From Acidobacteriota bacterium (lineage in GTDB: Bacteria; Acidobacteriota; Terriglobia; Bryobacterales; Bryobacteraceae), in assembly GCA_026394075.1 (NCBI GenBank), contig JAPKYX010000193.1, forward strand, positions 3,053 to 67,052: 64,000 nucleotides of DNA. The letters run 5' to 3'. This document shows positions 15,222-16,877 of this stretch, piece after piece. Each line of letters starts with the position of its first letter. The first letter of the stretch is position 1. The notes under the pieces are model-generated. The model had not been told where the DNA came from, made no database searches, and saw only the letters and a list, made by a program, of their open reading frames with translations. A program made the translations under genes and the position numbers.

Positions 15222-16877
15222 ATGAATCGGAGCATGAATCGGACGGCGGCGGCACCGGCGCATGCCGCCGCCCGCCCGGCCGTCGCACCAGGCCCGCAAG
15301 CCGGTTCGCGGGCACCGGACTCTTCCCCCGCGGGATCTCTGTGGCCGCGTATGGCGATGCGGAGTGCACCAGCCCCCCGGGCGGGACAACGGCTGACGGT
15401 CAGCGATCCTCACGACGCCACCGAGCGGGAAGCCAGTCACTTGTCCCATCGCTTGACCGGTCGGCCCGAAGCGGCCCCCCAGGCAGCTCCGTGCGCCTGC
15501 CACGGAACCTGCCCCCGCTGCCGAGCCAGCGGGAAACGGAAGCAGGTCTCAGGTGCGGTCGTCGAACAAGCCACCCGCTCCGGCGGACAACCGCTTTCTC
15601 CCGCTGAACGGGAATCCTTTGAGCCGCGGCTGGGCTACGACCTCAGCCCGGTCCGCGTCCACAGCGGTACGGACGCGAATCTCTCCGCCCGCAGTGTCTC
15701 GGCGCTGGCCTTTACCTATGGGCACGACATCGTGATGTCGGATCGCGTCGTGCCCGGCACCGCGCAACACCACCAGATTCTCGCCCATGAGCTGGTCCAT
15801 GCCACCCGGCACGCGGGCGATGATGCACTTCATCGGATTCCTGATGAGTCCGGGGTCAATGAGACGCCGCCCCGGTATTCTTACTCCACCAATTGCGGTT
15901 GGATCGATTGGTCCCATGCCGATCCCGGCATGACCATGCAGTTGATCCAGGCCGTCCAGGATGCCTCCGATCGGATGGCGGCCGGTGGCTCGACGACGCC
16001 GGAGTCGGTGGATGCTCCGCAGATGACCGCCCACGCGCCCTACGTCGGCATCTTGCTCAGCGGCGTCACGCCGGTGGCCCACATCAAGCGACCGCTCTCC
16101 AAGGATGAAGTCCTCAGCGTATCGCTCCAGTTGTTCATGTTGCAGTCTCTGGGCTTTGAAGCGCTCCAAGCCTGGACCGACGGCGCCGGCCACTCTTCCT
16201 ATTCGGAAGAAGACCTGCCGTCCAATATGCTGGCCTTTTACATGGGTGCCCGCGGGTTCACCCGGGCTCGCATCGAGAGGACGTGCGACGTCTGGGATGC
16301 GGCCCGCACGCTGACCGAATTTCAAGGCCACACCTTCGTGCGGAACCACACCTTCCGTCCTCTCAGCCTGCCCTCTGGTGGGTCCTGGCCGGCTGATCTG
16401 AATACCATCACCCCGGCCGTCACCAATGGCCCATTGATGGATTCACCCGACGCCGTTTTCGAGACCACCGGTGGTACGTTCACTCGAAGTCTGGAAGGCT
16501 ATGAGCTGATCAACAGTGGCCGTCTGCACATCGACAGCCTAAGCGGCTCCGGTGCTGTTGATATCTCCGGCACGACGCCGGGTTCTGCCCACGGTCCGCA
16601 TTTTCAGGTCAACCCGCTGCCCAATGTTCTGGGCATGGTGTGCCGCTGGATCATCCAGCTACCGGACGATTCCCGCGTTCAAATGAAAGGCGATGACGAA
16701 TCGTCGGTCTTCCAATGGACGGACCAGTTCAACGCCTACATCAATGCGCCCTCGCGAGAAGTGCTGCGCCAGCAGAACATTACGTCGGCGAACATCCTCT
16801 GCCGCGTGCGCGTGGCCGCGAGTGGCGCTGCCATGTTGGAACGGCTGCTCACACTGCCCGTGACCTTCAATTGGTGA
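15222..16877 (+). CDS. DUF4157 (eCIS-associated zincin-like) domain protein with unknown C-terminal domain; candidate eCIS cargo/toxin
   Basis: Cys-rich leader CACHGTCPRC. Then LSPAERESFEPRLGYDLSPVRVHSGTDA...ALAFTYGHDIVM...ILAHELVHATRH, with HELVH at 15786-15800, which is typical of DUF4157. About 350 aa downstream has no motif I recognise. Confidence 0.8.
   Translation: MNRSMNRTAAAPAHAAARPAVAPGPQAGSRAPDSSPAGSLWPRMAMRSAPAPRAGQRLTVSDPHDATEREASHLSHRLTGRPEAAPQAAPCACHGTCPRCRASGKRKQVSGAVVEQATRSGGQPLSPAERESFEPRLGYDLSPVRVHSGTDANLSARSVSALAFTYGHDIVMSDRVVPGTAQHHQILAHELVHATRHAGDDALHRIPDESGVNETPPRYSYSTNCGWIDWSHADPGMTMQLIQAVQDASDRMAAGGSTTPESVDAPQMTAHAPYVGILLSGVTPVAHIKRPLSKDEVLSVSLQLFMLQSLGFEALQAWTDGAGHSSYSEEDLPSNMLAFYMGARGFTRARIERTCDVWDAARTLTEFQGHTFVRNHTFRPLSLPSGGSWPADLNTITPAVTNGPLMDSPDAVFETTGGTFTRSLEGYELINSGRLHIDSLSGSGAVDISGTTPGSAHGPHFQVNPLPNVLGMVCRWIIQLPDDSRVQMKGDDESSVFQWTDQFNAYINAPSREVLRQQNITSANILCRVRVAASGAAMLERLLTLPVTFNW

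Follow-up and report, generated by a model that had tools for sequence, protein, structure and literature searches.

A locus for a contractile injection system lies at the beginning of a 64,000-nucleotide stretch of DNA from an Acidobacteriota bacterium (contig JAPKYX010000193.1; this whole 64-kb stretch is called the window below), and its last gene, at 15222-16877 on the forward strand, raises the question of what such a system may carry to its target and where in the target the cargo would act. An earlier note on this DNA had read the gene as a cargo protein fronted by a DUF4157 domain and ending in a single C-terminal domain of about 350 residues that matched no toxin family. The elements that it listed are all present in the sequence, namely the open reading frame (ORF), the cysteine-rich CACHGTCPRC, the DUF4157 core, HELVH at 15786-15800 (residues 189-193) and the motifs YSYSTNCGWIDWSHA and SSYSEEDLPSNMLAFYMGARGF. 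Two of its statements need revision, since residues ~205-400 correspond to a published toxin family, CapCone-1 of the Lipocone superfamily, and are followed by a separate module. We consider it fairly probable that the protein is a cargo toxin of a contractile injection system, composed of a leader, a DUF4157 domain, a CapCone-1 toxin and a beta-rich domain, and acting on a lipid-linked envelope precursor.

The gene is real and no chance ORF of GC-rich DNA. Its frame is intact and encodes 551 amino acids, the same sequence, from residue 5 on, as the 547-residue MCX6598067.1 of an Acidobacteriota metagenome-assembled genome (MAG), deposited under the title "DUF4157 domain-containing protein", and its C-terminal 352 residues alone retrieved 75 homologs (lowest E-value 1e-179). 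The true start is ambiguous by four codons, because the deposited protein uses the second ATG (15234) while a GAGG stands about 8 nt 5' of the first one. No terminator-like or promoter-like site stands out around the gene, and searches of the 551-residue protein against PHROGs and NCBIfam gave no match.

Mapping of the homologs by BLAST and hidden Markov models divided the C-terminal region into two parts, here named modules A and B, of about 200 and 150 residues. Module A is widely shared. Module B is a tail confined to the 33 closest proteins; wherever it was seen it followed module A, and sister subfamilies have it swapped or absent. Some proteins carry both modules without any DUF4157.

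Module A was compared with the CapCone families of the Lipocone superfamily, as defined by Burroughs, Nicastro & Aravind (eLife 2025; PMC12419801). It is 68% identical to the CapCone-1 member MCB0569717.1 (BLASTP, E 3e-73), whose segment in the CapCone-1 file of that work matches the trimmed module A of another protein of our set (P0004). The same file contains members of a sister subfamily with a different tail, B', described below; the 551-residue query itself is not in the list. Comparison by hhalign with the CapCone-DUF4056 sequences of PMC12419801 gave a probability of 97.8% (E 1e-12) for the Rhs-type set of module A proteins and of 90.5% (E 1e-6) for the DUF4157-linked set; the alignments pair the invariant residues with each other, and E313 falls on the Glu of the DUF4056 WHEI motif. 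Sub-threshold Pfam matches to DUF4056 were found in 7 of 19 diverse members (best E 2.4e-4), together with further weak matches to VanZ and DUF2279; DUF4056 and DUF2279 are both named in the searches of the defining study, and VanZ is a Lipocone family (PMC12419801).

The motifs described for the CapCones and their clade are a Gly six residues before the active-site His of helix H2, with an xD (or DK) pair that begins at the fourth residue before it, an S/GxxSxx ahead of the conserved Asp of helix H4, an aromatic residue followed by a Ser three residues before this Asp, and a small residue followed by an Asn four residues after it (PMC12419801). All of them are present in module A, as G226, I228-D229, H232, S325-x-x-S328-x-x-D331, Y327-S328 and S334-N335. 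CapCones also show a pronounced beta-hairpin clasp leading into H2 and a degenerate helix H1 (PMC12419801). In the AlphaFold2 prediction a beta-hairpin at 219-229 (strands 219-222 and 226-229) stands directly before helix 236-255; helices 236-255, 294-322 and 331-344 fit H2, H3 and H4, and H1 is at most a short helix. Both the model of module A alone (mean predicted local distance difference test, pLDDT, 90.1; predicted template modelling score, pTM, 0.87) and that of residues 113-551 (mean pLDDT 90.7, pTM 0.77) are confident. Because of the identity to a listed member, the complete set of motifs and the two hhalign probabilities, we consider the membership of module A in CapCone-1 secure by sequence comparison. 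In the supplementary network of PMC12419801, CapCone-1 has RHS (94) and DUF4157 (21) as N-terminal partners and PsbP/Mog1 (89), Imm-BamE (23) and HCP (8) as downstream neighbours. DUF4157-CapCone-1 fusions are already known, and the present gene adds a further member.

We then considered the evidence that module A is a payload. A profile of module A searched against 1.84 billion representative proteins gave 768 cluster representatives at E <=1e-3. At least five of these are RHS-repeat proteins by Pfam scan, with module A at their extreme C-terminus, where it starts directly after the DPxGL end of the core (in P0135, "...NATDPSGL" is followed at once by ASMSQVKSGALQYSCNCGWIDWSHA). A polymorphic toxin normally sits at just this tip of an Rhs protein. 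Among 203 sequences inspected, an HExxH, taken as the DUF4157 marker, precedes the domain in 91 and an Rhs/YD core end in 33, and another 32 begin at the domain itself, typically with "MSxRxDIxxGRLxYxCNCGW"; these last have the look of orphan toxin cassettes. The use of module A as the toxin tip of Rhs proteins is independent of DUF4157; module A is therefore read as a payload, in support of the proposal of the earlier note that the C-terminal part is one. For the same reason the domain was not retained as a C-terminal extension of the DUF4157 metalloprotease, as it occurs without DUF4157 in Rhs proteins and standalone cassettes.

Conservation was measured on 130 full-length copies, 59 of them DUF4157-linked and 71 others. 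H232 and D331 are present in 100%, E313 in 99%, D229, Q316 and S334 in 98%, G226 and S325 in 97% and N335 in 90%, and these residues look enzyme-like, of a catalytic type. C225 is conserved in 90%, and about 10% of the copies, intact in other respects, have Tyr, Ala or Met in its place; because of these replacements a cysteine nucleophile is unlikely, and an NlpC/P60 or CHAP cysteine protease was dropped. An ADP-ribosyltransferase with R-S-E motifs and a PD-(D/E)xK nuclease were dropped as well, since the order of secondary structures and the invariant residues do not fit either of them and Foldseek was silent on a common fold. C225 (15894-15896) and C355 (16284-16286) tend to be lost together, with a Fisher p of 7e-6 that is uncorrected for phylogeny. 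Many Rhs-type and standalone copies have an extra Cys beside C225 (YSCNCGW), and roughly a quarter of the Rhs-type and standalone copies also carry a CxC or CxxC pair ahead of the WP motif; DUF4157-linked copies have neither. The pattern suggests that C225, C355 and the added cysteines may form disulfides or a metal site.

A quite different view would be that the C-terminal region is no toxin and serves as a structural or assembly factor of the particle, such as a tube plug or a cap-associated protein, or as an aid to lysis of the producer. DUF4157 does behave as a core domain of injection loci, the gene is the only one with DUF4157 in the window, its homologs in Algoriphagus and Mucilaginibacter sit between the tape-measure and ATPase genes, and no immunity gene accompanies it. 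Yet Rhs proteins carry the same domain as their variable tip, orphan cassettes have it without injection genes, it is coupled to candidate immunity proteins and keeps its enzyme-like invariant polar residues, and the protein has no signal peptide with which to reach the envelope of its own producer, so that we hold a structural or lytic role to be very improbable.

The reading as a toxin cargo leaves module B to be placed. In one sister subfamily a tail of 112 residues, B', replaces module B; a relationship between the two tails was ruled out (hhalign probability 0.2%). In another there is almost no tail, and an OmpA-like peptidoglycan-binding domain is inserted inside module A, behind the helix that follows the active-site His and ahead of the beta 'cap', so that the CapCone domain ends the protein. 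Proteins with this insertion are P0034, P0047, P0054, P0055, P0061, P0067, P0069 and P0072, and an example is encoded in Streptomyces (L005, 10001-11818); the insertion does not appear among the entries available to us from the CapCone-1 architecture list of PMC12419801. Module B is confidently modelled by AlphaFold2 with about ten strands and two helices. The earlier note had proposed a Foldseek comparison of the C-terminal region, which for the 439-residue model against the PDB gave weak matches of module B to immunoglobulin-like (Ig-like), cadherin or PD-1 structures (E >=7e-3) and nothing for module A. We regard module B as weakly Ig-like from the model and, since B' or the OmpA-like insertion takes its place in sister subfamilies, as a putative accessory binding module. 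Used alone as a query it gave no informative match and missed even the identical protein, which looks like a word-index limit. Sequence searches of the PDB with the C-terminal region and two family profiles found no match, a third profile made from the diverse CapCone-1 set gave chance-level matches only (E >=0.096), and a Foldseek search of module A against a viral library returned noise (best E 0.14).

Where the toxin may act was approached through the genes that accompany its relatives. A scan of one genome per species collected 66 module A loci from many phyla, among them isolates of Delftia, Acidovorax, Herbaspirillum, Vibrio and Flavobacterium. In Rhs-type loci the next ORF downstream has an N-terminal transmembrane (TM) helix or a lipoprotein box in 14 of 19 cases, against a background of 25% among the other ORFs of the same loci (p ~1e-4), and this exported ORF often overlaps the stop codon of the toxin. 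Standalone cassettes have directly upstream the gene of a conserved protein, 140-170 residues long, whose N-terminus holds a TM helix. By a profile search this partner lies beside module A in about 26 loci, among them L007 (E 1e-8) and L017 (E 2e-5), where it is downstream of an Rhs tip; in L007 the 156-residue TM-anchored partner (8371-8841) overlaps the stop of the first Rhs gene and had been missed by the source gene caller. One immunity family downstream of all Rhs-type copies was considered and dropped, as BLAST clustering gave small groups only; the partner profile later linked some of these downstream groups, and others stayed outside.

Because the linkage holds across different gene orders and delivery contexts, the membrane-anchored partner is a candidate cognate immunity protein. 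If immunity is indeed membrane-anchored and outward-facing, the toxin would act in the periplasm or at the membrane, and the linkage points to an action of CapCone-1 outside the cytoplasm. This agrees with PMC12419801, where every immunity protein of a Lipocone toxin is reported to be a TM protein or a lipoprotein; our linkage results, obtained independently, match it. The earlier note had seen no immunity gene beside the present one and had suggested a search of related loci: relatives do have the partner, and the profile search found no homolog of it in the window or in the six DUF4157-type loci L001-L006.

Several of these loci have features of their own. In Delftia acidovorans NBRC 14950 (L041, 3483-4663) a membrane-anchored partner and then a standalone CapCone-1 form an isolated two-gene cassette; neither Rhs genes nor type VI secretion genes lie within 4 kb of it, and one of the genes nearby is HipA-like. 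The same cassette is found in the Burkholderiales loci L036, L037, L040, L042, L045, L049 and L050. L007 has tandem Rhs genes (4620-8381 and 9122-11878), both with CapCone-like tips, and the tip of the second gene is divergent ('YTWHMGWLDIGH...SGFSGEDLMSDLISFY'). At least five separate CapCone-1 loci, some of Rhs type, lie in one Chloroflexota genome (L059-L063 and L073; Phototrophicaceae MAG OZ245017.1), where TM-anchored ORFs follow several of them; related Chloroflexota loci have beta-propeller lipoprotein ORFs downstream instead.

The domains that accompany module A in relatives, an OmpA-like insertion, LysM and weak VanY-like M15 peptidase matches, are directed at the cell wall and support an envelope target. 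The M15-like matches are found in two large proteins with two DUF4157 domains and CapCone-1 (P0079, P0080), and the LysM domain in a large protein with one DUF4157 domain and CapCone-1 (P0105). The target could also be another one: an injected CapCone-1 cargo might act on head groups of phospholipids, lipopolysaccharide or exopolysaccharide, or on membrane lipids of eukaryotes. According to PMC12419801, residues specific to each family imply that substrates differ, other lipids may be hit by toxins of the superfamily, and PTDSS-type members act on phospholipid head groups; known injection systems of this kind often target eukaryotes. We nevertheless find such a target rather improbable, as the companion domains bind or cut peptidoglycan, the exported partner proteins fit a bacterial periplasm and the candidate immunity genes beside Rhs-linked copies imply bacterial targets.

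How a CapCone-1 toxin might be delivered is suggested by the N-terminal part of the protein and by the locus (Table 1). The leader has no family match and is presumably disordered, with 64 of its 112 residues (57%) being Ala, Pro, Arg or Ser; by analogy with the N-terminal domains of AlgoCIS cargo it may be a loading sequence. Its acidic motif recurs in at least 12 of the 91 DUF4157-linked relatives (strict pattern) and its Cys knuckle, a possible zinc knuckle, in at least 16 of the 91; because of this recurrence both are taken as features of the family. The DUF4157 domain (now eCIS_core) was matched with an E-value of 5.8e-20 and 71.7 bits against a cutoff of 22, and its stretch is modelled with a pLDDT of about 81-95. 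It lies N-terminal to a variable effector domain, here CapCone-1, at an injection locus, and it may process or chaperone the cargo.

Table 1. Coordinates in the window of the gene, its domains and motifs, and the neighbouring genes.
Feature	Position	Strand	Basis or remark
Whole gene, candidate injection-system cargo	15222-16877	+	ORF, 551 codons and stop
N-terminal leader, residues 1-112	15222-15557	+	composition; candidate loading sequence
Leader motif DPHDATEREASHLS, residues 62-75	15405-15446	+	form (D/E)PxDxxExEAxxxA
Cys knuckle CACHGTCPRC, residues 91-100	15492-15521	+	CxC(G/H)GxCPxC element
DUF4157/eCIS_core domain, residues 124-197	15591-15812	+	Pfam PF13699
Module A, CapCone-1 domain, residues ~205-400	15834-16421	+	predicted toxin
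Motif G226-W-I-D229-W-S-H232	15897-15917	+	Gly -6 and xD -4 of the active-site His
E313 and Q316, long helix assigned H3	16158-16169	+	conservation; DUF4056 alignment
Motif S325-S-Y-S328-E-E-D331-L-P-S334-N335	16194-16226	+	SxxSxxD, then small residue and Asn
Module B, beta-rich, residues ~403-551	16428-16874	+	AlphaFold2 model; no Pfam family
Baseplate assembly protein	458-2710	+	Baseplate_J; TIGR02243 above cutoff
CIS12/Tail_P2_I protein	2724-4904	+	family match, CIS12-like
ORF without family match, 553 residues	4790-6451	+	no Pfam, PHROGs or NCBIfam match
AAA+ ATPase	6444-8444	+	winged-helix (PF22977) and AAA domains
ORF without family match, 455 residues	8456-9823	+	no Pfam, PHROGs or NCBIfam match
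CIS13-like ORF	9857-11161	+	weak N-terminal match
CIS13-like ORF, 1330 residues	11158-15150	+	weak N-terminal match
ORF past the locus end, 537 residues	17026-18639	+	no family match; unlike an immunity protein
ORF past the locus end, 1031 residues	18830-21925	-	opposite strand; unlike an immunity protein

The window opens inside the injection locus, so that the sheath and tube genes lie before its start; the system is presumably of the extracellular type (eCIS, extracellular contractile injection system). The reading of the earlier note as a candidate cargo fronted by DUF4157 is supported by the order of leader, DUF4157 and C-terminal domain, which is that of known injection-system cargo, and by the locus: a co-oriented series with baseplate, CIS12-like, AAA+ and CIS13-like genes closes with this gene at its 3' end, and the two ORFs past it mark the boundary of the locus. 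The AAA+ ATPase is of the Afp15/Alg15 type. The 553-residue ORF overlaps the 3' end of the CIS12-like gene by about 115 nt. The two CIS13-like proteins, with N-terminal E-values of 7e-3 (11158-15150) and 1e-5 (9857-11161), are probably tail fibres or receptor-binding proteins, in which case they would set the target of the system; the longer one has a long low-complexity stretch rich in Pro, Thr and Ala near its C-terminal quarter. Homologs of the cargo gene stand among injection-system genes in Algoriphagus, Mucilaginibacter and Streptomyces, and one in a MAG adjoins an array of DUF4157 genes. Tape-measure, AAA+, sheath or tube genes are present in most of the homolog loci examined, and the ATPase of the Streptomyces locus has the same winged-helix and AAA architecture as that of the window. 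Related loci (L001, L004, L006 and L021) contain arrays of three to six DUF4157 genes in a row.

The protein could also be a CapCone-1 toxin that is not injected at all: DUF4157 would be its own processing or release route, and the toxin, freed by lysis of the producer, would hit exposed precursors, for example those of Gram-positive neighbours. The summary table of PMC12419801 names "MPTase-DUF4157" among the delivery systems of polymorphic toxins, thus as a delivery or processing module, in a study whose main text contains "contractile", "PVC" and "DUF4157" zero times each, and our literature search found no paper joining "Lipocone" and "contractile injection". Loading in AlgoCIS does not need DUF4157, and proteins with this domain are found outside injection loci too, such as beside mycobacterial ripC; one homolog locus (L002) has no recognised core injection gene within 10 kb, and TelC acts from outside the cell (PMC12419801). 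A release by lysis seems to us improbable all the same, given that the gene closes a co-oriented injection locus, that most of the homolog loci examined contain injection genes, that the leader resembles the loading sequences of proven cargo and that DUF4157 is strongly enriched at injection-system loci (odds ratio 2614).

Taking the protein as an injected cargo toxin, we propose the following mechanism. The leader would load the protein into the tube, helped by the AAA+ ATPase of the locus, as in AlgoCIS Cgo1 and Cgo2, and the HExxH-containing DUF4157 domain might process or chaperone it. The CapCone-1 domain would be the toxin and module B its accessory binding module. The toxin would work outside the cytoplasm of the target bacterium, at the periplasmic face of the membrane, where, by analogy with TelC, it may cleave a phosphate-linked head group off a polyprenyl-linked envelope precursor such as lipid II; cleavage or transfer of head groups by CapCone-1 is predicted from TelC and from PTDSS1/2. 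It would be harmless in the cytoplasm of the producer, with no need for an immunity gene, and an inertness in the cytoplasm would explain the absence of such a gene at the locus.

Several points weigh against this proposal. Its weakest step is the cleavage of the head group, where a lipid II-type chemistry is carried over by analogy from TelC across a distant superfamily link; in the network file of PMC12419801, as far as available to us, CapCone-1 is linked to other Lipocone families at probabilities of 66-88%. The Asp six residues after the H4 Asp of prok-TelC is missing here, position 337 being Leu, and a Foldseek search of module A against the PDB gave a best E of 1.4 with TM-scores <=0.20 and did not retrieve TelC. 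The label of immunity given to the partner proteins is a candidate one drawn from linkage, and the joint loss of C225 and C355 may in part follow the phylogeny, for which its p-value is uncorrected. Loading of the 551-residue protein into particles is proposed by analogy, release of cargo into the periplasm by such injection systems is an assumption, and the window has no sheath or tube genes by which to tell the extracellular from the cytoplasmic type.

A more specific version of the proposal is that of an antibacterial injection system whose sole DUF4157 cargo is active only at the outer face of the cytoplasmic membrane, on lipid-linked precursors; we put it forward tentatively and hold it to be doubtful. 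If it were true, the particle would release its payload into the periplasm of the target, the producer would need no immunity gene since the toxin would stay in its cytoplasm throughout, module B and the OmpA-like insertion would be undescribed substrate-targeting modules, and many candidates scored 'non-toxic' in cytoplasmic screens would be toxins hidden from those screens.

The proposal also bears on how the protein is to be assayed. Expression in the cytoplasm of E. coli, one of the toxicity checks suggested by the earlier note, is likely to be falsely negative, since the evidence indicates an action outside the cytoplasm; the payload is predicted to do no harm in the cytoplasm and to kill in the periplasm, and standard cytoplasmic screens may miss effectors of this kind. 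If the proposal is true, injection particles can deliver enzymes that target cell-wall precursors, which concerns both the range of targets and the engineering of antibacterial delivery, and its confirmation would be the first biochemical characterisation of a CapCone. Of interest are the explicit link of an injection-system cargo to a periplasm-acting toxin on lipid-linked precursors, module B, and the variant with the OmpA-like insertion.

TelC of Streptococcus intermedius is the only Lipocone toxin studied experimentally (PMC12419801). According to the account of Whitney et al. 2017 given in PMC12419801, it cleaves lipid II between undecaprenol and diphosphate and is active only outside the cytoplasm. 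TelC shares with module A the Lipocone clade and is a soluble toxin domain with an extracytoplasmic immunity protein; it differs in belonging to another family, prok-TelC, and in its delivery by type VII secretion via an LXG domain. Our sequence searches and Foldseek gave no match between TelC and module A.

The cargo proteins Cgo1 and Cgo2 of AlgoCIS have the same order of parts as our protein, a disordered N-terminal domain, DUF4157 and a C-terminal domain, and an AAA+ ATPase is likewise encoded in their injection locus. Both were shown to fill the lumen of the tube, and their N-terminal domain is required for loading. Their C-terminal domains differ from that of our protein; the one of Cgo1 has a second HExxH, which ours lacks, and Cgo1 is toxic in the cytoplasm of E. 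coli, which would be unexpected for a TelC-like toxin. The eCIS toxins with DUF4157 that have been validated act as deaminase, transglutaminase, nuclease and others, and no Lipocone assignment was made for any of them (Geller et al. 2021, PMC8213781; PMC11297309). Among DUF4157 candidates, 983 of 1130 have no second annotated domain (Danov et al. 2024, PMC11297309), and the present case shows that some of this unannotated cargo set can be placed in CapCone-1, a family published in 2025.

The toxins that carry the same domain are also among the closest known systems. Our protein differs from Rhs toxins in having neither RHS repeats (no RHS_repeat match in a Pfam scan of the 551 residues) nor the DPxGL core end, and no immunity gene after it; the Rhs toxins with CapCone-1 tips (such as P0135, P0143 and P0198) have a homologous domain with the same invariant residues. 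CapCone-1 as described in PMC12419801 has no C-terminal partner domain in its network, and module B, B' and the OmpA-like insertion are undescribed there. With our protein and its relatives it has in common the RHS or DUF4157 N-terminal partners, the motifs, the hairpin clasp and, in the relatives, the membrane-anchored immunity candidates.

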